Positions 3,457 to 45,499 of a stretch of DNA of 64,000 nucleotides are shown in pieces. Source of the DNA: an uncultured Acidaminobacter sp. GTDB lineage: Bacteria; Bacillota; Clostridia; Peptostreptococcales; Acidaminobacteraceae. A program made the translations under genes and the position numbers. The notes beneath the pieces are model-generated. The model saw nothing but the letters and a program-made list of their open reading frames with translations. It did not search any database and was not told the origin of the DNA. How positions within the stretch are numbered: position 1 is the first letter of the stretch; each line of letters starts with the position of its first letter. The stretch covers positions 994,174 through 1,058,173 of the forward strand of contig OY787533.1 in the NCBI GenBank assembly GCA_963678925.1, given 5' to 3'.

Positions 3457-3495
3457 AGTAACTCCCAATATTATGTATTTAAACGCCCATTATAA

Positions 3496-5560: not shown

Positions 5561-5572
5561 CATAGCCTCCTC

Positions 5573-7590: not shown

Positions 7591-9096
<1,506 letters not shown>

Positions 9097-13009: not shown

Positions 13010-13629
13010 ATGAATCCACCCCTGTTCTTGCCCTCATAGATTGATTCATCCAGCACCTCCGCCCCCGGCGGTGTGAACAGGCACTCATCCTTAGCTGTTA
13101 GCATATCCGGATAAATGTCTTCAAAATCTGAAAATGTCTTCAGAAAGGCATGACTGAATACAGATTCTTTGAAAGCCTCAGACGTATAGAGTTCTCCCCA
13201 AGGTGAATCCAGGTGAATGGCACCAATAATAACAGTACCGCCTGGCTTTACAACACGCATGAGCTCAGCAATCGCCTTATCAGGATACTCAATGAACTCA
13301 AAGGCCGCCATGGAAATGACATTGTCGAAGGTGTTGTCTTCGAATTTCAAGTCGTAGACATCCATTTCATAAAAGGATACTTCAGGAACTTTATTTCTGG
13401 CAATATCCAGCATATTGGTTGATATGTCAATGCCCGTGACCTGATGGCCCTTATCCGTCAGCTTCCGTGAAAAATTTCCTGTTCCACAGCCCACATCAAG
13501 AAAATGGGACGCCTTCAAGGCATCAATCCATTTGAAGGCGCAGGCAGTCTCAACGTCATCGACATGCTTGCCAAGGGCTGTATCGTACCAGCTATCGTAT
13601 TCCTTTGCCGCTGCATCAAATACTATCAT
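12985..13629 (-). CDS. Class I SAM-dependent methyltransferase
   Basis: Motif I: LDVGCGTGNFSRKL. Post-I DIS. 214 aa. Confidence 0.8.
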   Translation of the reverse strand: MIVFDAAAKEYDSWYDTALGKHVDDVETACAFKWIDALKASHFLDVGCGTGNFSRKLTDKGHQVTGIDISTNMLDIARNKVPEVSFYEMDVYDLKFEDNTFDNVISMAAFEFIEYPDKAIAELMRVVKPGGTVIIGAIHLDSPWGELYTSEAFKESVFSHAFLKTFSDFEDIYPDMLTAKDECLFTPPGAEVLDESIYEGKNRGGFICLKWVKA

Positions 13630-25338: not shown

Positions 25339-25357
25339 ATTTTCCCCCTTGTACGCC

Positions 25358-27614: not shown

Positions 27615-27615
27615 T

Positions 27616-28104
27616 TTACGCCTCCTCGCTTGACTTCGAGTTTTTCTTCATTTCAGCAGCCAGCTTGACAGATGAAAGAATTTTGTCATATCCCGTACAT
27701 CTGCAGAGATTTCCTGAAATCGCCTGCTTTATATCGTCTTCACTTGGATTGTCATTTTTATCGAGAAGGGCTTTCGACGAAAGCACCATACCGGGTATGC
27801 AGAATCCGCACTGTACTGCGCCATTGTCTAGAAATGCCTGCTGAACCGGATCGAGTGCCTCCTCGCTTCCAAGACCTTCAATGGTTACAACATGCTTTTC
27901 ATGGCACTGCGCCGCAAGAACCAGACAGGAATCAACAGCACGCCCCTCCAAAATAACCGTACATGCGCCACATTCCCCTTCTCCACAGCCTTCCTTTGTG
28001 CCTGTAAGACCCAAGTCTTCACGCAGGAAATCAAGGAGGCGTAGGCCTGGTTGAATTTCCCTTTCAATCCAATCTCCGTTTACATTTATTTTAAGGCTGA
28101 ACAT
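27616..28104 (-). CDS. Xanthine-dehydrogenase-family [2Fe-2S] subunit
   Basis: ORF 27616..28119. Cysteine motifs GCGEGECGACTV, CGFCIPG and CRCTGY. Start probably at MFSLKINVNGD, 8 nt after GGAGG. Confidence 0.92.
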   Translation of the reverse strand: MFSLKINVNGDWIEREIQPGLRLLDFLREDLGLTGTKEGCGEGECGACTVILEGRAVDSCLVLAAQCHEKHVVTIEGLGSEEALDPVQQAFLDNGAVQCGFCIPGMVLSSKALLDKNDNPSEDDIKQAISGNLCRCTGYDKILSSVKLAAEMKKNSKSSEEA

Positions 28105-28984
28105 TTTTTGCGCCTCCATTCTCCCTAAGGTCTACAATTTTGAAGAGCACATTTTTTATAACACCACGTATGGCCTGCTTCTTATACGGCATAGAACTCC
28201 GACCGCTGAGCCGTTTCTCGATTTCAGCCTCGAAGGCATCGGCTGCCTTTTCAATCAGTGCAGTGTTTAAAAGTTCTCCTTCCAGCAAGGCTTCAAGTTC
28301 GTACTCCCGTGTCGGCGTCAGTCCAATGGAGCCGGATCCTATTCTGCAACACTTTATGTTGCGCTCATTATCAAGCTCGACATAGGCCGAGGCACTGATT
28401 CTAGAAATAGCCAGCGCATTTCTAAGGCCCAGTTTTTCAAAAGCCAGCAAACCACCAGCCTGGTCTATGTCTCGGAACCGAATATGCGTGATCATTTCCG
28501 TTGGTCTCAGGTCAACACGCCCTTTTCCCAAGTAAAATTCAGATAAGGGCACTTGACGTTTTCCATCTGCACATTCCAGCATAACTTCCGCATCCAGTGC
28601 AAGCAGCGGTGGTGCACTGTCAGCTGCAGGAGATCCATTCGCAATATTCCCGCCCAGTGTGGCGGCATTTCTTATTTGCGGGGACCCTACACTCTTGCAG
28701 GCCTCCCACAAACCTTGACAGGTGCTGCGGATTGTTTCATTTTCTACCACTTCAGAAAAAGTCACAAGACCACCTATCGTGACATATCCATCTTGAATTC
28801 GTATGGCCTTGAGTTCACGAACACTTGATATGTCTATAACCGCAGGGCATGTATTCTTCCCTTCTCTTACATGCACGAGTAGGTCTGTGCATCCAGCAGC
28901 AATTTGCGCCTTCTTGCCATACCTATTTAAGAGCTGTAGTGCTTCATCTACTGATGTCGCACGATAAAAATTCTCTATTTTCAT
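28091..28984 (-). CDS. Xanthine-dehydrogenase-family FAD-binding subunit
   Basis: 297 aa. FAD_binding_5/CO-dehydrogenase flavoprotein pattern (AAGCTDLLV, ATLGGNIANGSPAADS). Confidence 0.88.
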   Translation of the reverse strand: MKIENFYRATSVDEALQLLNRYGKKAQIAAGCTDLLVHVREGKNTCPAVIDISSVRELKAIRIQDGYVTIGGLVTFSEVVENETIRSTCQGLWEACKSVGSPQIRNAATLGGNIANGSPAADSAPPLLALDAEVMLECADGKRQVPLSEFYLGKGRVDLRPTEMITHIRFRDIDQAGGLLAFEKLGLRNALAISRISASAYVELDNERNIKCCRIGSGSIGLTPTREYELEALLEGELLNTALIEKAADAFEAEIEKRLSGRSSMPYKKQAIRGVIKNVLFKIVDLRENGGAKNVQP

Positions 28985-29212
28985 TGAAGCCCCCTATCGT
29001 CCCTAGTGAATTTAAAACTTAATGCCAAAATCAAAGAGCGCCCTCTTTGTTTGCCGCATTAAGCTTCAACGACTGTCCCAATCGTCAAATCGAACGAATA
29101 TTAAATATTTTCTGATAATATTCGTCGCACTTATATACAATTTGAGCCCCTACGAAATGTAGAGGCTCAATATGTTTATTTTTTCATTTCCCTAATACAC
29201 ATTCAAATTCCA

Positions 29213-30529
29213 CTATTTCACAATCAGCGGAAGAATTAGCTTAAGCGCGAACAGGAAGGCAATGAAGAACGTCATTTTCGGTACTTCTTTTGAACGACCT
29301 GTAAATAGTTTCAGAAGAATGTAAGACATGATGCCCCACATGATACCTTCTGCAATGGAGTAAGCAAGTGGCATCATGATGATTCCAAAGAATGCTGGAA
29401 TTGATTCTGTAAAATCATCAAAATCAATTTCCTTGATTGGCGACATCATGAATAGACCTACAAGAATAAGCGCTGGCGCTGTTGCAGCTGAAGGAATAAT
29501 TCCAAACAGTGGTGCAAAGAACAGTGCCAGGAAGAAGAATACAGCTGTAGTAACAGCAGTAAGACCTGTACGTCCACCTTCTGCAACCCCTGCAGCAGAC
29601 TCTACGAAAGTCGTTACTGTTGATGTACCCAGACAAGCACCTACTGTCGTACCAACGGCATCGGCAAAGAGTGCTTTTTTAGCTTCTGGAAGCTTTCCTT
29701 CTTCATCGAGCATACCTGCTTTTGTAGAAACACCAATCAGTGTGCCAACTGTATCGAACATATCTACAAAGAGGAATGTGAAAAGAATGAAGATAAAATC
29801 AAACGAACCAACGTTTGACCATTCAAACGCGAACCAGATTGGTTTCGGTGGCATTGACACCAGCGATTCTGGAAGCTGAACAATACCGAATGGAATACCA
29901 ACGATTGTTGTAGCAACTATACCGATAAAGAGTGCTCCTTTAACGTCCATTGCCAGCAGAACACCCGTAAGAATGATACCGATGATCGCTACAAGTGGCG
30001 CGCCGCTTGTAATTTCACCTAGAGCCAGTGGAACACCAGCGCCCTGGACGATGATGCCTGCATTGTACAGACCGATGAAAGCGATAAACAGACCAATACC
30101 AACCGATATTGCGCGTTTGAGATTCAGCGGAATACAATTAAGTATGGCTTCGCGGATATTTAAGAATGTCAGGATTAGGAAAATAATACCTTCAACGAAT
30201 ACTGCTGTAAGTGCGAACTGCCAAGTATATCCCATACCAAGAACGACTGTAAATGCGAAGAATGCATTAAGCCCCATACCTGGTGCAAGTGCAAAAGGCA
30301 GGTTAGCGTATAGCCCCATTACAAGTGTTGCAACAACAGATGCCAGAGCTGTCGCAGTAAATACTGAACCAAAGTCCATTCCCGTTGCAGAAAGCATGCC
30401 CGGGTTAACTGCAAGTATGTATCCCATCGTCATGAAAGTCGTCAAGCCAGCAATAATCTCTGTGCTTGCATTCGTACCATGTTCCTTGAGCTTAAAGAAC
30501 TTTTCAAGGAAACCTGCTTGATTAGTCAT
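29213..30529 (-). CDS. NCS2/AzgA-type purine (adenine/guanine/hypoxanthine) permease
   Basis: ORF 29213..30601. Start placed at MTNQAGFLEKFFKLKEHGTNASTEIIAGLTTFMTMGYILAVNP, the typical N-terminus of this family. Confidence 0.88.
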   Translation of the reverse strand: MTNQAGFLEKFFKLKEHGTNASTEIIAGLTTFMTMGYILAVNPGMLSATGMDFGSVFTATALASVVATLVMGLYANLPFALAPGMGLNAFFAFTVVLGMGYTWQFALTAVFVEGIIFLILTFLNIREAILNCIPLNLKRAISVGIGLFIAFIGLYNAGIIVQGAGVPLALGEITSGAPLVAIIGIILTGVLLAMDVKGALFIGIVATTIVGIPFGIVQLPESLVSMPPKPIWFAFEWSNVGSFDFIFILFTFLFVDMFDTVGTLIGVSTKAGMLDEEGKLPEAKKALFADAVGTTVGACLGTSTVTTFVESAAGVAEGGRTGLTAVTTAVFFFLALFFAPLFGIIPSAATAPALILVGLFMMSPIKEIDFDDFTESIPAFFGIIMMPLAYSIAEGIMWGIMSYILLKLFTGRSKEVPKMTFFIAFLFALKLILPLIVK

Positions 30530-30683
30530 TAAATGACCCCCTGTTTTTCTTTGAGTCTCCGTCCCCCTGCGTCCAAGACCTGTCCTCCTTTCTTTATTCA
30601 ATTTGACGGAAGTATGTCCAATCCATTCTAACGCCTACACTACACCTTTGTAAATGGAGATTTCGGGATTTAAACAACTTTAA

Positions 30684-32498
30684 TTATTCGCCTATTGTTG
30701 GCGGTAGAATTTCAAAATTCTCAACATCAACAATTCCCTTATCGGTAATCTTCCATTTTGGACTTGTCGAGAGTGCCAGGAACGACAAATGCATAAACGG
30801 CGCATGGATTTTACAACCTAAATCTTCTTTTGCTTTTCTTTCAAGATCGCTGATTTTCCGGCTTACTTCTGACCCTTTCAGCTGATCTGTAATGAGCCCG
30901 CCCACCGGAAGCGGCAGTTCATCGACAACACGACCACCCTTTGCGAGCGCTATGCCGCCACCCATGGATATGACCCTATTTACAGCCACAGCCATGTCCT
31001 CATAGCTGGCACCAGTAACCAGGATGTTGTGGGTATCATGGGCAATCGACTCTGCAATGGCACCCTGCTTGATGCCGAAGCCTTTGACAAAGCCCTTGCC
31101 GATATTTCCGTTTCTGCCATAGCGTTCAAGACAGTGCATAGGGAGGACGTCCTGATCCACATCTGGCTCGACCACACCAGCACTTACCTTCAGCACTGCC
31201 TCAAGTGCATCCGATAGATTCTGGTCTGGTATGACACCAATCACATTGCAGCGTGCAGTCTTCCCTGTTGCCTCAACAGAAAGTTCAGCTGCAGTTGTTG
31301 GCGTTCTTTTAACTGAGTTCTTAACTGTGTCAGGATATGTATAGACGGGAATGTCTATGAGCATTTCCCCACCGGCCGCCATGAGTTCTCCTTCAATGAA
31401 GACCGCATCGACAACCATGTTGTCCAAATCGCTTATAATTGCAATATCCGCTAAATTTCCAGGAAGCAAAGCGCCCCTGTCCTTAAAGCCGAAATATGTT
31501 GCCGGATTTATTGTACACATTTGAATCGCTTCTACAGGCGACACGCCCTCAGCGATCGTCCGTTTGACAATTTCATTCATGTGGCCCAGCTTTTCAAGAT
31601 CCTCTGCAACCATATCATCTGTTGCGAGCACAGCGCGTCTTGAGTCCATGCCCTCTTCGGTAATGGCGCGTACGCACTCTGCCATATTACGCTGTGTTGA
31701 TCCTTCGCGCATGAAGACATACACACCATTTCTCAGTTTCTCAACCGACTCGGCCTTGGTTGTTGTCTCGTGACAGGAACAGGTTCCGCCAGTTGCGATG
31801 ATATGCGCAGCCAGATTCTTTCCAAAAAGCTCAGGCGCATTGCCGTCAACAACCTTGCCAAGACTTCTGGCATATGCCGTTGAGGCCAACAGGTCATCAA
31901 TGATTTCCGGTGTGTGATTATAGACATGCTGTGCATTGGAGAAACCCTGAAGTTCCCCAATACCAATGATATTCTTGTAATTGAGCAGGTCTTCCATGTC
32001 CTTTGAAGTGACATCTACACCTGCTGTTTCAAGGCGCGGACAATCTGGTGTTAGCGCCGGAACAACGAGGTGTACATGGTTGGGTACAACCCCTGCCTCG
32101 TCTGCCATGGCTTTCATGCCCACAGGTCCCAGGGCGTTCCCGATTTCATGCGGATCAGCGACAAGAGTCGTTGTTCCTGAAGGTATGGAGAGTCTTGCAA
32201 ACTCTGATATTGTAAGCATTGAGCTCTCAAAATGCATGTGTGAGTCGATAAAGCCTGGCGCAAGATACTTCCCGCTTACATCTATGACCAATGTTTTAGG
32301 GCCGACAAGAGACGCGTCATCGCTGAGCGCAAGGACATATTTGCCCTTGATTGCCAAGTCAACCTTAACGAGTTCACGTGTCACGGTATTTACCACATGA
32401 CCGCCTTGAAGGACCAAATCGGCATAATCGTGCTCACCCATAAGCGCATCGATCATGCGTCTATAGTCGATGGCTTGTTTTATGACACTTGGATTCAA
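30684..32498 (-). CDS. Adenine deaminase-family amidohydrolase, paralog 2
   Basis: 604 aa. GFIDSHMHFESSM and the same two-domain architecture as paralog 1, but clearly divergent in sequence. Confidence 0.85.
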   Translation of the reverse strand: MNPSVIKQAIDYRRMIDALMGEHDYADLVLQGGHVVNTVTRELVKVDLAIKGKYVLALSDDASLVGPKTLVIDVSGKYLAPGFIDSHMHFESSMLTISEFARLSIPSGTTTLVADPHEIGNALGPVGMKAMADEAGVVPNHVHLVVPALTPDCPRLETAGVDVTSKDMEDLLNYKNIIGIGELQGFSNAQHVYNHTPEIIDDLLASTAYARSLGKVVDGNAPELFGKNLAAHIIATGGTCSCHETTTKAESVEKLRNGVYVFMREGSTQRNMAECVRAITEEGMDSRRAVLATDDMVAEDLEKLGHMNEIVKRTIAEGVSPVEAIQMCTINPATYFGFKDRGALLPGNLADIAIISDLDNMVVDAVFIEGELMAAGGEMLIDIPVYTYPDTVKNSVKRTPTTAAELSVEATGKTARCNVIGVIPDQNLSDALEAVLKVSAGVVEPDVDQDVLPMHCLERYGRNGNIGKGFVKGFGIKQGAIAESIAHDTHNILVTGASYEDMAVAVNRVISMGGGIALAKGGRVVDELPLPVGGLITDQLKGSEVSRKISDLERKAKEDLGCKIHAPFMHLSFLALSTSPKWKITDKGIVDVENFEILPPTIGE

Positions 32499-32500: not shown

Positions 32501-32797
32501 CTATTCACCCCTTTTTCCCCACTCCAGATTCGAAGCGATATCAATCTGGTCAATAATACCGACAACGGCGCCGTCAATAGGTGCATCTGGTGCGTCACAC
32601 GCTTTTCTGGCGGCTGTGCCCGTACAAAACAGAACCAGTTCGCCATTACCCGCACCAACGGTATCGACCCCGACAATCGGTTGACCGATTGGATTATTAT
32701 TCATATCAACAGGCTGGATCAGCATAAGTTTCTTCCCTACCAGTCTGTCGTCTTTTCGCGTTGCCACTACGGTTCCAATTATTACTCCTGTTTTCAT
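32501..32797 (-). CDS. BMC vertex protein (BMC-P; EutN/CcmL/PduN family)
   Basis: 98 aa. MKTGVIIGTVVATRKDDRLVGKKLMLIQPV...VDTVGAGNGELVL is the canonical EutN pattern. Confidence 0.9.
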   Translation of the reverse strand: MKTGVIIGTVVATRKDDRLVGKKLMLIQPVDMNNNPIGQPIVGVDTVGAGNGELVLFCTGTAARKACDAPDAPIDGAVVGIIDQIDIASNLEWGKRGE

Positions 32798-32821: not shown

Positions 32822-33649
32822 CTACTGACGCTGGTAGACGATTCGAATTCCTCTGGAAATCGCCGCGTCCCTACCGAGCGGCGTTAGAATCTGTCCCTTT
32901 GTGATAGTAATTTCTTCAGCACCGGTAAGTGCCTTAATGTCACTTTCAGTCAGAAGCCTCTTAGAAGAAATCTCCGAAACGGTCAATTCACGCTTGCCCA
33001 CTGATACACCAGGCTTTTCACGCCTAGGTTGATCAGCGCTCTGCATGCGCCCTCGCGCTTTGCCGCCATTGAGCTCACGCAGGTAGTCATAGTGATCCAA
33101 AATGCGTGCACCAAATCCCTTCAGGGCCGAAACATGCCCCTGCATGATTCTCTTCATGGCCCTGTTGCTGTCTATGCTGAACCATCCATCAAAGACAGAG
33201 TTGGTGTTAAGAAGCACATCCTTTTTGGTGACAAGCGCCTGCCATATAAGCAGGGATGCCAGTTCGTCCTGTATGCCCACCGCAGTTTTCGCCAGGGTGT
33301 TTTGCGTCATATTGGGAACAAGCAGCAGATCCATCTGATCTATCAGGTCCTGTATATGGACGCCCTCAGACTCAAGCAGGACCTTCTTGGACTGCACACT
33401 TTCCTGAATAGCCTCCACAGAAAGAAGGCTCTCTGCGCTTCTGGTCAAAATAACCACCGTCTTCCAACCATCGTCACGCATTGCGCGAAGTGCACCATAT
33501 GCCTCGGTCAGACAAATATCACTTCCACACAGCAGAACAGCACAAGTTTTTTCTGGAGGCATTTCGGATGATTTTCCAACAGTCGTTCCACCTGAAACCT
33601 TCATATTGAGTTTTCCAAAGGCACGAATAATACGTTCTCTATCAGTCAC
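32822..33649 (-). CDS. Uncharacterised BMC-locus protein with a divergent flavoprotein (UbiX/HFCD)-like core and a C-terminal extension
   Basis: 275 aa. CAVLLCGSDICLTEAYG ... VVILTRSA ... LLLVPNMTQNTLAKTAVGIQDELAS parallels the flavoprotein-family pattern (GS..A, vvmT.sA, lv.PaTaNtlaK.a.GiaDnL). A linker rich in R/K/G/P follows, then a ~50-aa tail LTESDIKALTGAEEITITKGQILTPLGRDAAISRGIRIV. Confidence 0.45.
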   Translation of the reverse strand: MTDRERIIRAFGKLNMKVSGGTTVGKSSEMPPEKTCAVLLCGSDICLTEAYGALRAMRDDGWKTVVILTRSAESLLSVEAIQESVQSKKVLLESEGVHIQDLIDQMDLLLVPNMTQNTLAKTAVGIQDELASLLIWQALVTKKDVLLNTNSVFDGWFSIDSNRAMKRIMQGHVSALKGFGARILDHYDYLRELNGGKARGRMQSADQPRREKPGVSVGKRELTVSEISSKRLLTESDIKALTGAEEITITKGQILTPLGRDAAISRGIRIVYQRQ

Positions 33650-33675: not shown

Positions 33676-33951
33676 TTAGAGTTCAGATAAAACAACACGC
33701 TCCACTTCTGAATGCGGTCTTGGGATAACATGCACTGAATGCAGCTCGCCAACACGTGATGCAGCATCTGCACCTGCATCTGTAGCAGCCTTAACAGCAC
33801 CAACATCGCCACGTACCATAACCGTTACAAGGCCGAAACCTATTTTTTCATAGCCAACCAGTGTGACATTTGCAGCCTTTACCATTGCATCTGCTGCTTC
33901 AATTGCGCCTACCAGACCTTTAGTTTCCACCAAACCCAAAGCTTGACTCAT
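33676..33951 (-). CDS. BMC shell hexamer protein (BMC-H; PduA/EutM type)
   Basis: ORF 33676..33990. Start at [29 protein letters not shown], preceded by AGGAGG. Canonical BMC domain. Confidence 0.93.
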
Positions 33952-33990
33952 AATAATCCTCCTTAAATTCTGTGCACGATGCACCTTCAA

Positions 33991-34335
33991 TTATTCTTCT
34001 GACTGATCCGTCTTGTTTTCATTTTTATCAGCTTGCTTCTTTTGTCCTCCGAAGGCTCCGACAAGTTTGCCGACGTCTTCATGCGGCCTTGGCAGCACAT
34101 GTGACGACATGACTTTCCCAACAGCACTTGCAGCTTCAACACCGCTTTCGACAGCTGCCTGAACAGCTGCGACCTGTCCCGTCAAATTGACAGTCACGCT
34201 CACAACACTTCCAACACCAATGACTTTTTCAACTGCAATGCACTTCACATCAGCTGTTTTGACGGCTGCGTCAAGTGCTGCTGCGGCTGCTGCAAGTCCA
34301 ATGGTTTCAATTAAGCCCAACGCTTCACCTTGCAC
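33991..34335 (-). CDS. BMC shell hexamer protein (BMC-H) with a charged C-terminal tail
   Basis: MQGEALGLIETIGLAAAAAALDAAVKTADVKCIAVEKV... BMC domain plus the ~25-aa tail GGQKKQADKNENKTDQSEE. Confidence 0.9.
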   Translation of the reverse strand: MQGEALGLIETIGLAAAAAALDAAVKTADVKCIAVEKVIGVGSVVSVTVNLTGQVAAVQAAVESGVEAASAVGKVMSSHVLPRPHEDVGKLVGAFGGQKKQADKNENKTDQSEE

Positions 34336-34351: not shown

Positions 34352-34681
34352 CTACTTTCTTTTACTTTGAACAAATGCCTCCAGATTCATTTTGTTTCCC
34401 GAGTCCGTACGTGGTACACGACTTCTGGAAACAGATTTTTCAGGACCTTTATTGTATGTTCCCGCAAAATGTTCGAGGGCATCCTTTTTCCTGCTGGTAC
34501 TCACGGGCTTTCTCTGCTTGACAGGGTCAATCAGCTGTTTTAAAACACCCTCTTCATCCTGTGAGAGATGGCTGTGTCCTTGCCCTTCATAGCTGTCTAT
34601 GGTCGTCATTGTCTCTGCAGTCGGCCCGAGTTTCTTGTCGACAATGCGCTGCATGATTCTAAGCGTCAATGCATTTGCCAT
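34352..34681 (-). CDS. Small basic hypothetical protein inside the shell operon
   Basis: 109 aa with no recognisable domain. The N-terminal ANALTLRIMQRIVDKKL could form an amphipathic helix. The remainder is K/R/S-rich and probably disordered. Confidence 0.4.
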   Translation of the reverse strand: MANALTLRIMQRIVDKKLGPTAETMTTIDSYEGQGHSHLSQDEEGVLKQLIDPVKQRKPVSTSRKKDALEHFAGTYNKGPEKSVSRSRVPRTDSGNKMNLEAFVQSKRK

Positions 34682-34698: not shown

Positions 34699-34968
34699 CT
34701 AAGCCTCAAATAGGATGTCCATATCCCCTTCAGGTCGTGGAATGACATTGATGCCAATAACATCTGCCATGTGCGCTGCACCATCCTGCGCAGCAGCAAT
34801 TGCCGAGTTGACAGCTGCTACTTCGCCTTCAATAACGACACTGATGACACCCGACCCAACCACATTGAAGTCTTTTATTGTCACATCGGCTGACTTCACC
34901 ATAATATCTGCTGCATAGCACGCAGCGACATAGCTTCTGATTTCAAAAAAACCAAGTGCCTTCTTCAT
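34699..34968 (-). CDS. BMC shell hexamer protein (BMC-H), divergent
   Basis: 89 aa. KKALGFFEIRSYVAACYAADIMVKSADVTIKDF...VIPRPEGD. Confidence 0.85.
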   Translation of the reverse strand: MKKALGFFEIRSYVAACYAADIMVKSADVTIKDFNVVGSGVISVVIEGEVAAVNSAIAAAQDGAAHMADVIGINVIPRPEGDMDILFEA

Positions 34969-36335
34969 CGCTTACGTCCCTCCAATTCTACACCCGGAAA
35001 GAACCGCTTAAGGTCAATCGCTTCGTATCCAGGTATTTTAGCCTTTTCAAACCCTTTTCCAAGTTCCCCAAGGGGCTTTGTTGCGTCAACACCCATTTTG
35101 TCTGTTGTGTTTTCAAGCAGATGGGAAGGGTCAAGTCCGGTTCCCTGGGCGCCTGAAATAATGATGATATCCTTGGAAGCCTGAACCCTTGATGCGATTG
35201 CACCTTCAACATCGCCTGGATCAAATATATCAATGTCATCATCAACTATGACAACGTGTTTCATGTCTTTGGTACTGCTCAGGGCAGTAATGATTGCCGT
35301 TCTTGCATCGCCCGGAAGCTTCTTTTTGATGGAGACGAGTCCATGAAATCTGCATCCGGCTCCAATTGTCACATTAACATCCTTCACTTCTACAAAACGG
35401 TTCACATGGGCATACAGCTCAACGTCCCTAATGAGTCCATTTGACAGATGCTCTTCCTTGCACGGCGCGGAAATCTGCATAATCGGATCATTGCGGTGGG
35501 TAACCGCCTTCACCCGCATAACCGGATGAGACTTGACCGATCCGTAGTATCCCATAAGTTCTCCAAAGGGACCCTCAATCTCAGATTCGCGTGCTGCTAT
35601 AACACCTTCGAGCACGATCTCAGCATCTGCCGGAACCTCCAGATCAACCGTTTTGCATTTTACGATACGAAGCGGTTCACCTCTCAGCGCACTGTCAATG
35701 GCATGCTTGTCCACACCGTAAATATCTGTGCCGACCTGTGAAGCCAAACAGTAGTTATAGTCATAACCCAGAACAACAGCGATTTCCATGTCCTTTCCTT
35801 CAGACTTGTAGCGCTGAAGCATCCCTGACAGGGGCTCTGAGGTCACAAGTACGCTCAGACTGTTTCTGCCATTGAACTGAAGCCTGCGAATTGATGTAAA
35901 TGTATCGCCCGTTTCAGGGTCTTTAACCACGACAACCCCAGCTGTAATAAAGCTGGAGGAATCATGCTCATGAAATGTCGGAAGCGGCAGAAGCTTTCCA
36001 ATGTCGATTCCGTTTCTGATTACATTCTCATGCACCGGGCCGCTTTGAACCAGCGCTGGTTTCATGGGTCTTGTGATGGCACTCATGTATTTGATCAGCC
36101 TGTTTTCACGTGTTGTACCCGTAAAGTCATAGAACATTTCACGGTCACCAAACATGGCTCCTATCACTGGCATCTTATGCCCTTTGACGTTCTTGAAAAG
36201 CACAGGTGTCGTATTGCCCAGCTTCTCAAGAATTCCACCCATTTCATATTTCAAGTCTACCTGCTCTCCACATTCGAGCAGGTGATATTTTTCCTTTAAC
36301 TTTGGAAGACAAGCCCGCAGCATTTGCTCAGCCAA
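34965..36335 (-). CDS. UbiD-family (prFMN-dependent) reversible decarboxylase
   Basis: 456 aa. UbiD pattern FITAGVVVVKDPETGDTFTSIRRLQ ... AEIVLEGVI...EGPFGELMGYYG. Its stop overlaps the start of the BMC-H gene by 4 nt. Confidence 0.88.
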   Translation of the reverse strand: MAEQMLRACLPKLKEKYHLLECGEQVDLKYEMGGILEKLGNTTPVLFKNVKGHKMPVIGAMFGDREMFYDFTGTTRENRLIKYMSAITRPMKPALVQSGPVHENVIRNGIDIGKLLPLPTFHEHDSSSFITAGVVVVKDPETGDTFTSIRRLQFNGRNSLSVLVTSEPLSGMLQRYKSEGKDMEIAVVLGYDYNYCLASQVGTDIYGVDKHAIDSALRGEPLRIVKCKTVDLEVPADAEIVLEGVIAARESEIEGPFGELMGYYGSVKSHPVMRVKAVTHRNDPIMQISAPCKEEHLSNGLIRDVELYAHVNRFVEVKDVNVTIGAGCRFHGLVSIKKKLPGDARTAIITALSSTKDMKHVVIVDDDIDIFDPGDVEGAIASRVQASKDIIIISGAQGTGLDPSHLLENTTDKMGVDATKPLGELGKGFEKAKIPGYEAIDLKRFFPGVELEGRKR

Positions 36336-36355
36336 GCTATCACCTCCTTATTCAT

Positions 36356-36910
36356 CTAAGTCCACCTTCTAAAAAGCCCGCCATCCAGTCCCAGCTGGTC
36401 GAGTATACGCCCCACCATGATTAGAACCAGATCGTCAATTGACTCAGGCTTGTGATAAAACCCCGGTGACGCAGGCATCATGACGGCACCTGCACGAGAA
36501 AGCTTAAGCATGTTTTCCAGATGGATATCGGTAAGCGGCGTTTCCCGAGGAACAACCACGAGCGGTCTTTTCTCCTTCAAAGTGACATCGGCTGCACGCT
36601 GTACCAGATTTGTGCTCAGACCGTTTGCGACGGCGCCAAGTGTATTCATGGAACAGGGTATAATGACCATACCATCGGTTTTGAAGGACCCGCTGGCAAT
36701 GGCAGCTGCAAGATTGTCATTCTCGTATACCACCGATGCCAAGGACGCCACCTCGCTGATTGTAAAATCGCATTCGTGCTCAAGGACGTATGCGCCCATT
36801 CTGGAAACAGCCACATGGGTTTCTATATCCAGCTCCCTTAAGGCCGTTAGGAGCGCAACTGCATAAATGCTGCAGCTGCCCCCCGTAATTCCGACCACGA
36901 TTCTTTTCAT
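36356..36910 (-). CDS. ubiX: Flavin prenyltransferase UbiX (prFMN synthase)
   Basis: 184 aa. MKRIVVGITGGSCSIYAVALLTAL ... IIPCSMNTLGAVANG. Confidence 0.9.
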   Translation of the reverse strand: MKRIVVGITGGSCSIYAVALLTALRELDIETHVAVSRMGAYVLEHECDFTISEVASLASVVYENDNLAAAIASGSFKTDGMVIIPCSMNTLGAVANGLSTNLVQRAADVTLKEKRPLVVVPRETPLTDIHLENMLKLSRAGAVMMPASPGFYHKPESIDDLVLIMVGRILDQLGLDGGLFRRWT

Positions 36911-36912: not shown

Positions 36913-37524
36913 CTATTCCACTTTATTGGCTTGATCCCCGCCGCCTAACCACGGATCTTCGCCTTTTTCCCATGCCTGGATATACTCATCCAGATCCATA
37001 ACTTTTGTGAAGATTGAAAGGTCTTTCAGACCATATTCATGCATTTCATCTGTTTTTGACGCACAGCAGTCAGCCAGCGTAATAACCTTATAAGCGTTAT
37101 ATAGGGCATCTGCCGCAGTCGATCGAACGCATACGTTTGTCCAGACACCTGTCACAACCACTGTATCGAGATTTTCTTCTCTCAGATAAAGGTCCAGGTC
37201 TGTATGTGCGAACGCCGAGTGACGACGCTTTGGAATTCTGTACTCTTCCCCTTCAGGGTATAGTTCCTGGATGAAGTCAGAACCCCAAGTTCCAGCAACT
37301 GCATGCACAGGACGCACTCTAAAATCAGCATCATTCTTTCTGTGTGCCTCTTGAATATGGATGAGCTGAATGTCATCCTTGCCTTCTGCGTTTCTTGCGC
37401 GAACCCATTCAAAGAGCTTTTGCAGATTCGGGATGATGTCATCGCCGCCTGGACAGCGAAGCGGTGCCTTCTCACCGATAAAATCATTCAGCATGTCGAT
37501 AATTACAATACCATGTCGTGGCAT
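36913..37524 (-). CDS. Isochorismatase-family cysteine hydrolase (nicotinamidase / N-carbamoylsarcosine amidase-like)
   Basis: ORF 36913..37593. Start placed at MPRHGIVIIDMLNDF. D (IIDMLND), K (PKRRHSAF) and C (VWTNVCV) triad positions are present. Confidence 0.8.
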   Translation of the reverse strand: MPRHGIVIIDMLNDFIGEKAPLRCPGGDDIIPNLQKLFEWVRARNAEGKDDIQLIHIQEAHRKNDADFRVRPVHAVAGTWGSDFIQELYPEGEEYRIPKRRHSAFAHTDLDLYLREENLDTVVVTGVWTNVCVRSTAADALYNAYKVITLADCCASKTDEMHEYGLKDLSIFTKVMDLDEYIQAWEKGEDPWLGGGDQANKVE

Positions 37525-37662
37525 TTGATTCACTCCTTCTAACCGTGTATGCATCACATTCGTTTTCATAACGATGTGCGTGAATTTTCTCAATTGACTT
37601 CTTGTTGACGCTATTCTGATAATTTAATAGATGACAGGTTGCTGCAGACTCATCTGAGCCAC

Positions 37663-39228
37663 TTAGTCATTGACGCTTTTGTAAGTGATTTTCTTATCAA
37701 GTTTTTGGATACTCTGACGTTTAACCCACTTACCAAAGCCTGGATTCACCATGATCCCCTTGATTCCGTTGACTTCACCCTTCACCTTTTCAGGATGTTC
37801 TTTACGGTAGCTCACTTTATACTCTTCCGACCAGTTTTCTTCAGTTGTGTTGAAGACTGAGTCCCAGTCATTGAACTGTGGCAGTACGCCTTCTTCGCCG
37901 TCGCAGTAAACCAGGTTTCCGCGGACAATCGTCTTGACCGGTTTGCCTTTTAGCTTCATGCCGTGCAGCGGATTGTACTTGGCCATGGTAACTTGTTCCT
38001 TCTGGTCAATTGTCCACTCGCGCTCAAGATCAATAACGGTCAAATCAGCGTCTGAACCAATATACATGGCACCTTTTTTAGGATAGAGTCCCATGTGCTT
38101 GGCAGCGTTAGTTGACGTAACCTCAACAAGCTTGCTCAGTGAGATGCGTCCTTTATTGTATCCTTCTGAAACAACAATCGGTACCATGGTCTCAACACCA
38201 GGTATACCAGGGAACGCAGTCCAGATATCTCGACCTGCCTTTTCAGATTCTATTTCGTATGGTGCATGGTCAGTCGCTACAAAATCAATGTATCCATTTC
38301 GAAGTGCTTCCCAGTGCATTTCATTGTCTTTTTTTGTTCTGAGTGGCGGTGCGATTTTTGCGTAGGCACCATGCTCTGTCATTGCTTCCTGATAATTCAG
38401 GGTCAAATAATGCGGACACGTTTCAGCCGTCACATCAAGACCGCGCAGTTTAGCTTCCCCTACCAATTTGGCGCCAATGCCTGTCGACATATGTACGATA
38501 TGAAGTCTGGCACCTGTGTGCTCTGCAAAGCTGATTCCCAGCTCAATCGCCACTTTTTCTGCCAGTTCCATTCTTGCTTCAGCCCAGGCTGGTCCATCCA
38601 TGCGACCCTCTTCACGGAACTTATTCACATAGAAATCGCACATTGCAAAGTTTTCAGCATGTATTCCAACAGGCAGGCCTGTCTTGGAAACCGCTGCAAA
38701 GCATTCCAGCATTTCCGGATCTGTAACACGCGGATATGTAGGTACTGATGGTGTCATGTAAACCTTGAAAGCAAGAACACCTTCATCGGCCTGTTTCTGA
38801 ACATTGTCGAGCCAACCCCGTCTGACATCCTCACCTGTCACACCGCCCCACAGACCAAAATCACATAAAGCCTGCGGCTGCCAGTGCTTAATTTTTTCAT
38901 GAAGCTGTTCTACACTTCTTACTGAAGGTACCGAACAGCAAGGCATATCAACAACTGTGGTCACGCCGCCAGTAACTGCTGCAGCAGAACCTGTCAATGT
39001 CGTCTCACGGTGGTCGAAGCCCTGGAACATAAAGTGAGTATGCGAGTCAATACATCCCGGTATCGTCAGATTGCCTTCAGCATCAATCACTTCTTCAAAC
39101 TCTATACCTTCAAGTGTGTCAACGAAACCTGCAATTTTCTCGTCTTTCACTAGAATATTGGTCAGGACCGTGTCATCTCCCTGAGGGATTCTCGCGTTTT
39201 TCACGATAACATCGTACTTCATTCCCAT
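37663..39228 (-). CDS. Cyclic amidohydrolase (dihydropyrimidinase/allantoinase/hydantoinase-like)
   Basis: 521 aa. Has DSHTH, AFKVYM (carboxylated-Lys position), GIHAEN, LHIVHMS and ATDHAP. Carries an insertion near the C-terminus relative to what I expect for ~450-460-aa family members. Confidence 0.85.
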   Translation of the reverse strand: MGMKYDVIVKNARIPQGDDTVLTNILVKDEKIAGFVDTLEGIEFEEVIDAEGNLTIPGCIDSHTHFMFQGFDHRETTLTGSAAAVTGGVTTVVDMPCCSVPSVRSVEQLHEKIKHWQPQALCDFGLWGGVTGEDVRRGWLDNVQKQADEGVLAFKVYMTPSVPTYPRVTDPEMLECFAAVSKTGLPVGIHAENFAMCDFYVNKFREEGRMDGPAWAEARMELAEKVAIELGISFAEHTGARLHIVHMSTGIGAKLVGEAKLRGLDVTAETCPHYLTLNYQEAMTEHGAYAKIAPPLRTKKDNEMHWEALRNGYIDFVATDHAPYEIESEKAGRDIWTAFPGIPGVETMVPIVVSEGYNKGRISLSKLVEVTSTNAAKHMGLYPKKGAMYIGSDADLTVIDLEREWTIDQKEQVTMAKYNPLHGMKLKGKPVKTIVRGNLVYCDGEEGVLPQFNDWDSVFNTTEENWSEEYKVSYRKEHPEKVKGEVNGIKGIMVNPGFGKWVKRQSIQKLDKKITYKSVND

Positions 39229-39462: not shown

Positions 39463-41133
39463 TTAGAACAAACCAACAATTTCTCCATCTTCGAGAATAT
39501 CAATCTTGTTTGCAGCTGGAACCTTTGGCAGACCAGGCATACGCATGATGTCGCCTGTCATTGCAATCAGGAATCCAGCACCTGCTGATGCCTTCACTTC
39601 ACTGATGTTTACAGTAAAGCCACTTGGACGACCAAGCAGTGCAGGGTTGTCAGACAGTGAGTACTGTGTCTTTGCCATACAAATTGGCAGATCACCCAGT
39701 CCGTCTTCCTCGAACTTCTTGATATCCTTAAGTGCCTTGCTTGAGAATTTCACACCATCAGCACCGTAGATTTCCTTAGCGATTTTCTCGATTTTTTCCT
39801 TTGCAGGAAGCTCAAGATCATAAAGTGGAGAGAAGTGTGCCTTGCCAGACTCTGCAACCTCGATTACCTTCTCAGCAAGCTTCACGCCGCCTTCTCCGCC
39901 TTTAGCCCAAACTTCAGAAAGAACTGCATCCGCACCCATTTCACGACAACGATCTTCAACAAAAGTAAGCTCTTTGTCTGTATCTGTTGGGAATGCGTTG
40001 ATTGCAACAACCGCAGGTACACCGAACTTCTGAACGTTTTCGATTTGCTTTTCCAGGTTGCCGAAACCAGCTGCAAGTGCTTCCATGTTTTCTTCACCAA
40101 GCTTGTCCTTCTTAACACCGCCGTGGTTCTTAAGCGCTCGTACTGTTGCTACGATAACAACCGCTGCAGGCTTAAGGTCCGCATAACGACACTTGATGTT
40201 GAAGAATTTCTCAGCGCCAAGATCTGCGCCGAATCCAGCCTCTGTTACGACATAATCAGCAAGTTTCATTGCCAGTTTTGTTGCAACAACTGAGTTACAG
40301 CCATGCGCGATATTCGCGAACGGACCGCCGTGAATCAGTGCTGGTGTATTTTCAAGTGTCTGTACAAGGTTAGGCATCAGGGCATCTTTAAGAAGAAGTG
40401 CCATTGCGCCAACCGCATCCAGCTCACCAGCCGTAACCGGCTTCTTGTCATATGTGTATCCAACAACCATTCGGCTCAGTCTAGCCTTCAGGTCTTGCAT
40501 ATCTGTCGCAAGGCAAAGGATTGCCATGATTTCTGATGCAACAGCTATATCAAATCCATCAACACGTGTCACACCATTGCCTTTTTTACCAAGACCAATT
40601 GTGATTTCACGAAGCGAACGGTCATTCATATCGATTGCACGTCTCCAAAGAATACGCTTTGGATCGATGTTCAGCTTGTTTCCTTGGTGCAGATGATTGT
40701 CAAGAAGTGCTGCAAGAAGATTGTTTGCAGTTGTCACGGCGTGGATATCGCCTGTAAAGTGCAGGTTGATATCATCCATAGGAACAACTTGTGCGTGACC
40801 GCCGCCAGCTGCACCGCCCTTAACACCAAAGCATGGTCCAAGAGATGGCTCGCGAAGTGCTGTAAATGTCTTCTTGCCAATCTTGTTAAGACCCATTGAA
40901 AGACCAACGTTTGTTGTCGTCTTGCCTTCACCTGCAGCAGTCGGATTGATTGCTGTAACCAGAATCAGTTTTGCATCAGGTGCATCTTTATAACGGTCCA
41001 TGACATCTAGATGGATTTTCGCTTTATACTTCCCGTAAAGCTCCAGATCATCCTCAGACAGTCCTAGATTTGCTGCAATCTCCACGATTGGCTGCATCTT
41101 TGCTTCCTGTGCAATTTGAACATCAGTTTTCAT
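39463..41133 (-). CDS. fhs: Formate--tetrahydrofolate ligase
   Basis: 556 aa. [16 protein letters not shown]-loop, full-length FTHFS. Confidence 0.97.
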
Positions 41134-41375: not shown

Positions 41376-42308
41376 CTAGTCTTCCATCAGGTGTGTTTCC
41401 ATGATTGAGGATACATTGAAGTTTTCAAGGCCGAGGAAATACTCAAGAGAGTTCAGCAGATATTCCAGCTTGACTGGTCCAACTATTTCAGACCCTGTCA
41501 CAGCAACGCCATATCGTGCCGCTTCAGACTTTACAAAATTGAAGGTCCTGTACAGAGGCGTCTTGCCGCAGTCGAACATGTTCATTGATACGACAACCCC
41601 TTCGTGGTCTGGGAACTTGAGTCCAACAGAACGCACTGTTGAGAATCCGCCCGACGGACCACGAACCGCCTTCGCAATTTTCTTGGCAATGGACAGATCT
41701 TCCGTTGCCAGGAATACATTGTAAGCAGTCAGACCTTCCATATCTGCACTGACAATCGTTGCACCCATTTTAGGGTCCAGCTTGCCATCTTTTGAAATAT
41801 CAGGCTTTCGCGCATCACGGTCTGGATGATTTTCATCTTCCAGGAGCGCCTTCAGACCTTCATATTGTCCTTTTCTTATGTATCCAAGCGCCTTGCGCTC
41901 TTCACTTCTTGAGTTGACGCCTGAGAAGAAAATTGGTACATTGTGCTTCTCATGAAGTTCTGCGCCAATTTCTTCTGCCAGTGCCTTTACCTCATCAATA
42001 TCGATATTCTTGAACGGGAACAGCGGAATCGTATCCTGTCCACCAATTCGAGGATGCGCACCTTCCTGGTCTCGCATATCTATAAGCTCATAGGATTTCG
42101 CAGCCATGGCCATCATAGCCTTTTTCAAAGGACCGGGTTCACCGATACAGGTAATGACGGTTCTGTTGAAATCATGTTCCGGCTCATAACTGATCAGCTT
42201 GACACCTTCAACTTTTCTAACCTCGTCAACAATTGCTTCAATGACGTCCTTGTTTCGTCCGTCACTGAAATTTGGAACTGCAAGTATGTATTTCTTGCCA
42301 CCTGACAT
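41376..42308 (-). CDS. Formiminotransferase (FTCD N-terminal type; glutamate/glycine formimidoyltransferase)
   Basis: 310 aa. ILAVPNFSDGRNKDVIEAIVDEV and a two-subdomain FT architecture. No fused cyclodeaminase domain. Confidence 0.88.
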   Translation of the reverse strand: MSGGKKYILAVPNFSDGRNKDVIEAIVDEVRKVEGVKLISYEPEHDFNRTVITCIGEPGPLKKAMMAMAAKSYELIDMRDQEGAHPRIGGQDTIPLFPFKNIDIDEVKALAEEIGAELHEKHNVPIFFSGVNSRSEERKALGYIRKGQYEGLKALLEDENHPDRDARKPDISKDGKLDPKMGATIVSADMEGLTAYNVFLATEDLSIAKKIAKAVRGPSGGFSTVRSVGLKFPDHEGVVVSMNMFDCGKTPLYRTFNFVKSEAARYGVAVTGSEIVGPVKLEYLLNSLEYFLGLENFNVSSIMETHLMED

Positions 42309-42762: not shown

Positions 42763-43452
42763 TTGAAGCTTATTGACCTGTCACAGGAGATTTTTCAGGG
42801 AATGTCTGTATTTCCAATGCATCAGCCTACTTTTATAATGACCAACATGACACACGAGGAAAATATGAAGCAAACAGGGTCTACTAAGTTGGGCTTTTCG
42901 GCTCGAAATCTGCTTATAAGCGAGCACGGCGGAACACATAGCGATGGCGTCTGGGAGTACAAGCCATCGGGTCAGACCATTGATAAAATGCCCATGGAAT
43001 ACTTCTGGGGCAGTGCCATTTGTGTTGATTTGACAGCTATTCCCACAAATAGATACATAGAACCTCGCGATTTGGAGCAGGCAGTCAGGAAATCAGGACA
43101 GGAAATTCGTGAGGGCGACATTTTCCTAATGTATACGGGCCACTACGATAGAAATTTTGGAACAGACAAGTGGCAGACTGAATATACGGGCCTTTCCTAC
43201 AAAGCTGCAAAATGGCTGGCCGAAAAAGGGGTTGTCAACATTGGTGTAGATGCTCCAGCCATCGACCATCCAAGTGACCCGGATTTTTCTGGGCATATCA
43301 TCTGCGGTGAGTACGATATTACAAACACAGAAAACCTGTGCTGTCTTGACAAGGTAGTCAACAAAAGATTCCTATATTTTGGACTGCCTTTGAAAATTCG
43401 AGATGGTTCCGGATCTCCAATTCGTGCTGTAGCCCTTCTTGATGAGGCCTAA
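42763..43452 (+). CDS. Cyclase-family metal hydrolase (kynurenine-formamidase-like)
   Basis: 229 aa. TTG start 9 nt after AAGGAAAGGGG. HGGTHSD motif. Divergent from the purine cluster promoter region. Confidence 0.75.
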   Translation: MKLIDLSQEIFQGMSVFPMHQPTFIMTNMTHEENMKQTGSTKLGFSARNLLISEHGGTHSDGVWEYKPSGQTIDKMPMEYFWGSAICVDLTAIPTNRYIEPRDLEQAVRKSGQEIREGDIFLMYTGHYDRNFGTDKWQTEYTGLSYKAAKWLAEKGVVNIGVDAPAIDHPSDPDFSGHIICGEYDITNTENLCCLDKVVNKRFLYFGLPLKIRDGSGSPIRAVALLDEA

Positions 43453-43915: not shown

Positions 43916-45499
43916 GTGATTATTTTTGAAAATGAAAAACTGAAAATTTCAACTCATAATGAAGAGGTTTATCTTACTGTGAATGGCTATGGTATTACAA
44001 CAATGGACTTTAACGGCATTTTAAGCACATTGCCGCAAATAAAGCTCAGCTCTTTCACAGTGCTTCAGGGCGCACTTCAGAATGCTGACAGCACGCCTGT
44101 GAAAATCGGTTCACTCAAGCCTGAAATAGAACTCGAAATCTCTTCTGATGAAATGTCCGCTTTTGTGCGTGTCAACTTCTCTCAAGACAAGTGCCATGCC
44201 ATGAAAACTGAGATTTCAACAAAAATCCTAAACCTGCTGCACGAAAGCGGTATAAGTGAGGGTATTCTCTCAGAAGCACTGGAATCCGGTTTCAAGCCCG
44301 GACAAAAGCTTCTGGTTGCAAGGGGCAAGCACCCGACTGCAGGACAGGATGCCAAATACAGATACTATAAGCTTTCTGAGCGTAATCCCGAGCTTGATAC
44401 AAGCGGAAAAACGGACCACTATGAACTCAATTTGATTGATAACGTTAAAAAGTATGATTGGCTTGGTGAGAAAAGACCACCTGTACCCGGCACAAGCGGC
44501 TATACGGTATACGGACGTGCCTTGCCTCCAAAATTAGGGCGTGACTATTCCCTCAAATATGATAAGGGGGCCATTGATCTGATTGTTGAAGATGGCATTG
44601 AGGTACTTCGGGCAAAACATGACGGTGCCGTCAGATTTAAAGACGGAAAAATCACCGTCGACAACCACCTGCACATCCATGGCGACGTTGACTTTTCTAC
44701 AGGAAATATCAAGTTTGATGGCTTTGTGACAATTGAGGGAACCGTCAAAGATAAGTTCTACGTTGAAGCCACCAAGGATATTGAAATCAAGGGTGCAAAC
44801 GGAGTAGGCGCAGTTGCCCGCATTGAATCTCAGGACGGCAGCATCTACATACGCGGAGGGATTAACGGAAAAAACGAGGCAATGATCATTGCAAAAACGG
44901 ATATTTTCGCAAAGTTCTCCAACGAGGCGATCCTGCTCGCAGGCAATACAATCCACATCGGTCTTTACGCCATTGACAGCACACTGAAAGCCGACTGTAT
45001 TAATCTCGACCCTCAGAAGGGCCGAATCATTGGCGGTGAAATTCATGCAGCCCACAAAATCAGCTCCGGTTCGATTGGAAATGCCCAAGAGCGTAAAACA
45101 AAGCTCAACGTACAGGGCTTTGAGCGCCTTGATATCAAGACGCAGCTCGAAGCAACACGTATTCGCTTTCAGGAGATTATTTCAAAGGCAAATCATCTGA
45201 AGCGCCAGCTCGAGATCTTTGAGATGAATTTCGAGACCCTTGATCCGAAAGCTAAAACCACCTACAAAGGCATGATGGTAAACTATGAAAATATCATCGA
45301 TGATATCAACCGAACAAATAAGGAAGTCGTAAGGCTTGAAAACATGCTCCGCACACGCGGCGAAGGCGAGGTCAAGGTCATGAACAACATCTTTCCGAGA
45401 ACATTCCTTGAAATCAAGTCCATTCAGAAGCATGTCAACAAACTTATGAAGGGTTCCTTTTACGTTAAAGACCGGCAGCTTCATACTGCCTTAGATTGA
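43916..45499 (+). CDS. FapA/DUF342-family protein
   Basis: 527 aa, GTG start. N-terminal MIIFENEKLKIS...EVYLTV. Central beta-helix-like repeats (HIHGDVDFSTGNIKFDGFVTIEGTV...) and a C-terminal coiled coil are typical of DUF342. Confidence 0.75.
   Translation: MIIFENEKLKISTHNEEVYLTVNGYGITTMDFNGILSTLPQIKLSSFTVLQGALQNADSTPVKIGSLKPEIELEISSDEMSAFVRVNFSQDKCHAMKTEISTKILNLLHESGISEGILSEALESGFKPGQKLLVARGKHPTAGQDAKYRYYKLSERNPELDTSGKTDHYELNLIDNVKKYDWLGEKRPPVPGTSGYTVYGRALPPKLGRDYSLKYDKGAIDLIVEDGIEVLRAKHDGAVRFKDGKITVDNHLHIHGDVDFSTGNIKFDGFVTIEGTVKDKFYVEATKDIEIKGANGVGAVARIESQDGSIYIRGGINGKNEAMIIAKTDIFAKFSNEAILLAGNTIHIGLYAIDSTLKADCINLDPQKGRIIGGEIHAAHKISSGSIGNAQERKTKLNVQGFERLDIKTQLEATRIRFQEIISKANHLKRQLEIFEMNFETLDPKAKTTYKGMMVNYENIIDDINRTNKEVVRLENMLRTRGEGEVKVMNNIFPRTFLEIKSIQKHVNKLMKGSFYVKDRQLHTALD

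Follow-up and report, generated by a model that had tools for sequence, protein, structure and literature searches.

A 64,000-nt stretch of the genome of an uncultured Acidaminobacter sp. (contig OY787533.1; hereafter the window, whose positions serve as coordinates throughout) encodes a flavin prenyltransferase of the UbiX type and a UbiD-family decarboxylase directly upstream of bacterial microcompartment (BMC) shell genes. Judged from sequence and gene context, this pair probably catalyzes step 4 in the anaerobic fermentation of purines by the xanthinase (Rabinowitz) pathway, the conversion of 4-amino-5-imidazolecarboxylate to 4-aminoimidazole and CO2. This role in the decarboxylation of 4-amino-5-imidazolecarboxylate is well supported by the orthology and synteny of the UbiD protein with XauD, by the complete set of pathway enzymes and by the separation of this protein from the HmfF clade. 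The functional assignment is supported and already published, and the window contributes one more case of a locus type described before. Two points may be new, namely the replacement of the Mn2+ ligands in the UbiD protein and the presence of a conserved small disordered protein encoded among the shell genes.

The UbiX protein (36356-36910, minus strand, 184 aa), which makes the cofactor prenylated FMN (prFMN), matches PF02441 (E 9e-48) and scores 238 bits against TIGR00421 (cutoff 109). Twenty nucleotides past its stop codon, the gene for the UbiD-family decarboxylase (34965-36335, minus strand, 456 aa) starts with TTG at 36335, with AAGGAGGTG a few nucleotides upstream. The UbiD_N, UbiD and UbiD_C domains all score above the Pfam cutoffs and together span the full length of the protein, which also reaches 309 bits against TIGR00148 (cutoff 245). 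These domain and family scores agree with an earlier note on this DNA, made from the sequence alone, which had described a full-length UbiD of this size just downstream of UbiX. Relatives of the window UbiD are encoded in an uncultured Acidaminobacter metagenome-assembled genome (OY762511.1, 99% identity) and in Fusibacter (85%).

Previously, the genes Amet_4568-4587 of Alkaliphilus metalliredigens were predicted to encode a xanthine-utilization (Xau) microcompartment (Ravcheev et al. 2019, PMC6620236). In that model Amet_4581, the only decarboxylase, was named XauD, assigned to step 4 and placed inside the BMC, and xanthine dehydrogenase (XDH) and the tetrahydrofolate (THF)-dependent step were put outside the shell. 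XauD from strain QYMF shares 55% identity with the window UbiD, and gene counting places the QYMF UbiD of our set (P0075) at Amet_4581. The QYMF locus (L084; CP000724.1, 4683704-4705059) and the window have the same order gene for gene from the cyclase-family hydrolase through XDH, a small unannotated open reading frame (ORF) among three BMC-H genes, and the same proposed step-4 reaction. The two loci come from different families, the window genome being of the Acidaminobacter type, and they differ at the junction of UbiD with the shell gene (an 18-nt spacer in QYMF, a 4-nt overlap in the window) and in the position of PucR, which is adjacent in QYMF but 12 kb off in the window. QYMF also has a formimino-THF cyclodeaminase, for which the scan of window ORFs gave no counterpart. 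More recently, a xanthinase-pathway gene cluster identified by Tong et al. 2023 (Cell Chem Biol 30:1104) was described as occurring in Clostridia and Bacilli and comprising hydrolytic and decarboxylative steps (Li et al. 2025, PMC12507026); by this account the pathway is the same as the one proposed here and the cluster is of the same kind. The earlier note had named UbiD as the 4-amino-5-imidazolecarboxylate decarboxylase, a proposal that is well supported by the syntenic 55% orthologue and the full pathway but is not new, having been made by Ravcheev et al. in 2019. Literature searches combining UbiD with xanthine and microcompartment, or prFMN with aminoimidazole and purine, found nothing. 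The 2023 study reportedly characterized the enzymes of the pathway, a prFMN-dependent decarboxylase together with four hydrolases, each from another family; the window has exactly this set, with four hydrolase families in addition to UbiD.

The pair lies inside a purine operon of about 19 kb and belongs to a compact minus-strand unit, upstream of which a cyclase-family hydrolase gene is transcribed divergently. The upstream part of this unit encodes, in order, a formiminotransferase, a formate-THF ligase, a hydantoinase/allantoinase-like protein, an isochorismatase-like protein, UbiX and UbiD. After UbiD come a BMC-H gene, an ORF of 109 aa, two further BMC-H genes, a flavoprotein-like gene, a BMC-P gene of the EutN type, an adenine-deaminase-like gene and a permease gene; the XDH subunits and a true adenine deaminase are encoded downstream of a terminator-like hairpin. 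The cluster holds every other enzyme type required by the Rabinowitz xanthine pathway, including hydrolases of the cyclase-family, hydantoinase-like, isochorismatase-like and adenine-deaminase-like types, in addition to UbiD, FTCD and XDH. In the proposed pathway, UbiX would prenylate FMNH2 to prFMN, with which UbiD would act on the imidazole ring by covalent catalysis. The UbiD substrate would be formed from 4-ureido-5-imidazolecarboxylate by the isochorismatase-like enzyme, and the adenine-deaminase-like enzyme would strip the amino group from the labile 4-aminoimidazole. A cyclic amidohydrolase would then open the ring of 4-imidazolone to give formiminoglycine, from which the formiminotransferase and the formate-THF ligase would carry the one-carbon unit through to ATP.

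Conservation was analyzed in 80 of the 139 matching loci from a genome scan (UbiD identity 49-99%), which represent Acidaminobacteraceae, Peptostreptococcaceae, Alkaliphilus and its relatives, Tissierellaceae, Romboutsia and others; Gottschalkia, C. cylindrosporum and the Bacilli lie outside this set. The order UbiX-UbiD, shell block (three BMC-H genes and one BMC-P gene) and adenine-deaminase-like gene was found in all 80 loci, each with a BMC gene directly downstream of UbiD. UbiX adjoins UbiD in 79 of them, the remaining locus ending at a contig edge, and the hydantoinase-like and isochorismatase-like genes lie upstream of the pair in nearly all loci long enough to show them.

The substrate assignment was weighed against the possibility that UbiD acts on another heteroaromatic acid, such as 4-ureido-5-imidazolecarboxylate, a furan or pyrrole carboxylate (as HmfF/HudA-like enzymes do) or xanthine-8-carboxylate. 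The solved structure closest to the window UbiD is indeed the furandicarboxylate decarboxylase HmfF from Pelotomaculum thermopropionicum (6H6V; E 2e-99, end-to-end alignment), many database entries label Xau-type UbiD proteins '2,5-furandicarboxylate decarboxylase 1', and both clades keep H296, R303 and R329 as well as the E-R-E network; the substrate of HmfF, like the one proposed here, is a five-membered heteroaromatic acid. However, identity to HmfF is only 41%, the database labels are automatic transfers, and a comparison of 120 Xau-type with 119 HmfF-type sequences gave two clean groups, in which members of the same group share 50% identity or more and members of different groups no more than 47%. 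When 1.84 billion representatives were searched exhaustively with phmmer, the Xau clade yielded just three full-length clusters at 50% identity, after which the score falls from 498 to 322 bits. The gene context of HmfF is also unrelated, since HmfF-type genes have AFOR and alcohol dehydrogenase or meta-cleavage genes as neighbors and no purine or BMC genes. We also considered whether HmfF of P. thermopropionicum might itself be a hidden Xau-type enzyme, and rejected this on its neighbors (AFOR, Fe-ADH, ThiS and ThiF) and its place in the separate clade. The earlier note had proposed a phylogeny against characterized UbiD clades, naming a position within a clade of unrelated specificity and without purine neighbors as the outcome that would count against its assignment; this outcome did not arise, Xau UbiD being placed outside the HmfF clade. 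A UbiD active on a purine carboxylate does exist in Cupriavidus sp. LA-1, where UbiX (LA1_0144) and UbiD (LA1_0150), encoded in a purine/pterin cluster, decarboxylate xanthine-8-carboxylate, which like the substrate proposed here is an imidazole-ring carboxylate (PMC12391406). In contrast to the Xau system, the Cupriavidus enzyme comes from an aerobic soil host and is not associated with a microcompartment; its assays contained K+ and Mn2+, and its authors saw no close relationship of LA1_0150 to the other members of the UbiD family (PMC12391406). Since the classical pathway has exactly one decarboxylation and UbiD is the sole decarboxylase among the annotated genes of the locus, a substrate other than 4-amino-5-imidazolecarboxylate appears improbable.

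The active site of the Xau clade combines an invariant catalytic network with an altered cofactor site, and the latter weighs against the assigned reaction. In Fdc1, the phosphate of prFMN is anchored through Mn2+, whose ligands are N168, H191 and E233 (PMC4947166). A HMMER alignment to Fdc1 maps these ligands to F146, P168 and K210 in the window UbiD, so that all three ligands are replaced and cofactor binding must differ from that in every UbiD structure that could be aligned. At the first position the Xau clade has Tyr, His or Phe and at the second Leu, Met or Pro, whereas the HmfF clade has Asn and His, respectively, in 119 of 119 sequences; at the third, at least 95% of the Xau clade has Lys and at least 95% of the HmfF clade has Glu. 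P. thermopropionicum HmfF accordingly keeps N147, H169 and E210, and TtnD and Fdc1 also retain the Asn-His-Glu set. Seven positions tell the two clades apart, including R150/His, K210/Glu and M261/Pro, with R150 present in all 120 Xau-clade proteins. Among the 141 nearest UbiD-family representatives, 77 have Asn-His-Glu and 30 carry Lys at the Glu position; the Lys variant therefore reaches beyond the Xau clade, and it was found in no UbiD structure that could be aligned. The canonical ligand set is thus a typical trait of the UbiD family but does not define it. These replacements could be read as marks of a degenerate paralogue, non-catalytic or devoid of cofactor for want of the prFMN-anchoring Mn2+ ligands that the HmfF clade keeps throughout. 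Such a loss of function is very improbable, because the E-R-E network R151/E254/E259 (R173/E277/E282 in Fdc1) is invariant in the 120 Xau-clade members and also kept in the HmfF clade, UbiX is retained beside UbiD in essentially all loci, and 30 of the nearest representatives share the Lys. Moreover, the substitutions are themselves conserved and positively charged, at least 95% of the clade having K210 and all 120 members R150, which points to a phosphate site that was remodeled rather than lost. For the functional decarboxylase favored here, we infer a remodeled, possibly metal-independent phosphate anchor, and the replacement of the Mn2+ ligands may be a new observation.

The second possibly new point concerns the ORF of 109 aa (34352-34681, minus strand) that separates the first BMC-H gene from the second. 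It encodes a disordered protein with conserved short helices, a candidate cargo adaptor or scaffold. The protein has no match in Pfam or NCBIfam, and tblastn with this ORF gave matches in the three nearest loci only. The same slot, however, holds an ORF of 67-208 aa in 78 of the 80 loci, and also in L084 (11668-12219). These small proteins share the N-terminal consensus MANPLARVIMNNIVKK, and many have a middle helix L..EE.LL..LIHK (a loose pattern was matched in 49 of 78). A helix of the form ..(S/T)L(D/E)EL..K usually occurs at least once (a loose pattern detects one or two copies in 55 of the 78 ORFs); some members end with IPKVSLNSIGKK. The linkers are rich in Lys (13.5%), Asn (9.9%) and Ser (9.3%). 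A profile search with this family returned 86 proteins, all annotated as 'hypothetical' and with no Pfam domain, and every organism-named match came from a Xau-type taxon. For the 109-aa protein, AlphaFold2 gave a predicted template modeling score (pTM) of 0.20 with helices at residues 4-17, 41-51, 65-75 and 100-108 (all but the third confident) and disorder elsewhere. For its N-terminal helix the hydrophobic moment is 0.50, a value that equals or exceeds the 95th percentile of windows taken from the operon proteins and is close to that of the PduD peptide. This architecture suggests that the fast-evolving small protein may serve as an adaptor or scaffold. To our knowledge, the small helix-bearing Xau protein has not been described before.

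At the junction between UbiD and the first shell gene, the TGA stop and the BMC-H ATG overlap as ATGA (read as cgtaagcgATGAagaag), giving the 4-nt overlap at 34965-34968 that the earlier note had reported and that the sequence bears out; a GGAGGG lies inside UbiD, 9 nt upstream of the BMC-H start. The ATGA overlap recurs at three other junctions in the window (13626-13629, 15417-15420 and 45496-45499). Among the 71 related loci with a placeable shell-gene start, 52 have a UbiD-shell spacer of 0-25 nt, many with a visible Shine-Dalgarno sequence of their own of the GGTGG/GGAGG type. Translational coupling as a sign of co-assembly was rejected, given that the overlap is found in 9 of the 71 loci and occurs elsewhere in the window. 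The conserved element is the gene order, not the overlap, which is no more than a consequence of closely packed operon genes in this lineage.

The earlier note had further suggested that UbiD may be the signature, possibly encapsulated, enzyme of the compartment, and for this part of its proposal nothing specific to UbiD was found. Several observations speak against encapsulation. An alignment of 81 UbiD orthologues revealed no N- or C-terminal extension and no segment resembling an encapsulation peptide; the sequences start with ME.QMLR and end with IDI.KYFPN and a short variable tail only, and their length (445-473 aa) equals that of HmfF (448 aa), which is not associated with a BMC. In about 80 orthologues UbiX likewise lacks terminal extensions, the UbiD-shell overlap is lineage-specific (9 of 71 loci), and the Kerfeld group refers to Xau as a 'proposed' BMC in a 2024 preprint. 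Conserved terminal motifs occur only on two other enzymes of the operon. The adenine-deaminase-like enzyme has a conserved N-terminal iKxAmEYRxlIDvLM, but its candidacy as an encapsulation peptide is weakened by the alignment to 3NQB, which starts at residue 14, and by an unremarkable hydrophobic moment. The hydantoinase-like enzyme has a conserved C-terminal GfGqFvKRQsIQkL past the region matched by solved homologues, which is more conserved than usual encapsulation peptides and not strongly amphipathic. Neither motif convincingly resembles an encapsulation peptide. The C-terminal extension of the hydantoinase-like enzyme comprises residues of about 446-521, and some lineages have a variable insert of about 60 aa before the motif.

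These results leave considerable room, a little short of an even chance, for UbiD having the proposed activity in the cytosol, with the shell enclosing later steps, such as those of the aminoimidazole deaminase and the imidazolone hydrolase, or other enzymes and the adjacency of the genes reflecting only a pathway encoded in one operon. The lack of an encapsulation-peptide-like segment on UbiD and UbiX, the non-conserved overlap and the restriction of conserved terminal motifs to other enzymes are what a cytosolic UbiD would predict, and the published model already has some steps outside the shell (Ravcheev et al. 2019, PMC6620236). On the other hand, the order UbiD-then-BMC-H is invariant, many known BMC cargoes have no targeting peptide of their own, and the conserved helix-bearing disordered protein could recruit a cargo that lacks one. 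In addition, 4-aminoimidazole (Rabinowitz 1956) and the next intermediate are reported to be labile, which favors production of 4-aminoimidazole inside the shell. The reactions enclosed by the shell would then probably be those that form and use up the unstable 4-aminoimidazole and 4-imidazolone, and UbiD would be inside. On this pathway logic and the invariant gene order, encapsulation of UbiD is about evenly balanced. The combined proposal that Lys210 and Arg150 replace the Mn2+/K+ phosphate anchor of the UbiD structures that could be aligned and that UbiD enters the shell via the 34352-34681 protein, an adaptor type undescribed for catabolic BMCs, is rather unlikely to hold in full.

Like the Pdu and Eut metabolosomes, the Xau system would have a shell of BMC-H and BMC-P proteins, known in the window from their genes. 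In contrast to Pdu and Eut, Xau involves neither an aldehyde dehydrogenase nor chemistry with CoA or NAD, and its signature enzymes are without a clear targeting peptide. A 2024 preprint also describes Xau as lacking an aldehyde dehydrogenase, with no evidence of NADH involvement. A separate disordered protein bearing helices would resemble the logic of the carboxysomal CsoS2 and CcmN rather than the cargo tags of Pdu and Eut.

The shell block between UbiD and the adenine-deaminase-like gene contains three PF00936 genes and one PF03319 gene, all on the minus strand. The first BMC-H protein (34699-34968, 89 aa; PF00936 E 2e-18) is followed by a second (33991-34335; E 4e-21) and a third (33676-33990; E 2e-30), which is probably the major one and is the most conserved shell protein, with 77-95% identity across the related loci. 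The vertex protein BMC-P (EutN/CcmL) is encoded at 32501-32797 (PF03319 E 3e-30), and the ORFs of the locus that were scanned include no BMC-T gene. The block also contains a gene for a flavoprotein-like BMC accessory protein of 275 aa (32822-33649, minus strand), whose N-terminal half has a weak match to PF02441 (E 1e-9) and which scores weakly, far under the cutoff, against TIGR02536. Its C-terminal motif is ...ITPLGRDAAISRGIRIV, and the protein is present in most loci with an identity of only 21-54%; a PDB sequence search found no relative. A link of this protein to prFMN handling in an anaerobe would be pure speculation.

The hydrolases upstream of the pair belong to different protein families. 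The isochorismatase-family amidohydrolase (36913-37593, minus strand; PF00857 E 1e-43, PDB 3HB7 E 5e-108) is the putative 4-ureido-5-imidazolecarboxylate amidohydrolase. Its listed start is probably too early, and M24 (codon 37524) is the likely one, because MPRH is the N-terminus both of the orthologues and of 3HB7, a near-identical structure from structural genomics. The hydantoinase/allantoinase-like cyclic amidohydrolase (37663-39228, minus strand; Amidohydro_1, best PDB match 1GKR, E 1e-82) is matched by the allantoinase and hydantoinase models below their cutoffs and may be a ring-opening enzyme (xanthine amidohydrolase or imidazolonase). The divergent gene at 42763-43452 (plus strand) encodes a metal hydrolase of the cyclase/kynurenine-formamidase family (PF04199 E 1e-33) and occupies the position of XauA (Amet_4587). 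This fourth conserved hydrolase of the locus shows 68-99% identity in 56 loci and is divergent in 55 of them; it is among the most conserved enzymes of the locus, and it may perform either of the ring-opening steps divided between it and the hydantoinase-like enzyme. One-carbon metabolism is represented by a formate-tetrahydrofolate ligase (39463-41133, minus strand; PF01268, 919 bits) and a formiminotransferase (41376-42308, minus strand; FTCD_N and FTCD, TIGR02024 288 bits), which is presumably a glycine formiminotransferase.

Downstream of the shell block, the adenine-deaminase-like amidohydrolase (30684-32498, minus strand; Adenine_deam_C and Amidohydro_1, best PDB match 3NQB) scores 466 bits against TIGR01178, just below the cutoff of 472, and is the candidate 4-aminoimidazole deaminase. 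It shares 66-92% identity across the loci, excluding the near-identical L001. A xanthine/uracil-family permease (29213-30601, minus strand; PF00860 E 2e-43) is followed by the hairpin (29142-29170, minus strand; 12-bp stem with 6 GC pairs), which resembles a terminator and would close the transcription unit from FTCD to the permease. The XDH subunits (25358-28984, minus strand), comprising FAD, 2Fe-2S and two molybdopterin-binding parts, match PF00941/PF03450, PF01799/PF00111, PF02738/PF01315 and PF20256. The adenine deaminase proper (23590-25437, minus strand) reaches 636 bits against TIGR01178 (cutoff 472). Its listed GTG start overlaps the XDH gene by 80 nt, and the real start is probably a Met near residue 34, since the alignment to the family model does not begin before residue 52. 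The PucR-family regulator of purine catabolism (54440-56098, minus strand; PF07905 and PF13556), 12 kb from the operon in the window, is adjacent to it in 45 related loci as determined by tblastn.

Two other regions of the window were noted. Positions 1-5600 form a low-GC island (35-37%), likely an integrated mobile element, with a transposase of the Mutator family (1110-2333), a tyrosine integrase (4589-5608) and an HTH protein, besides two ORFs without a family match; it adjoins guaA (5687-7231) and guaB (7591-9096). Just past the purine locus, 43916-47358 (plus strand) encodes FapA-domain and double-GAF proteins with a 4-nt overlapping junction, which appear unrelated to the purine locus.

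The window extends a locus type already known, and strictly conserved in at least 80 species of Clostridia-type anaerobes, to one more genome, that of an anaerobe of the Acidaminobacter type. A UbiD clade in which all three metal ligands are replaced offers a test of the Mn2+ requirement for prFMN binding. The conserved disordered multi-helix protein provides a handle on cargo recruitment in a microcompartment that involves neither aldehydes nor cofactor recycling, and the xanthinase pathway itself is of applied interest for purine-clearing probiotics.

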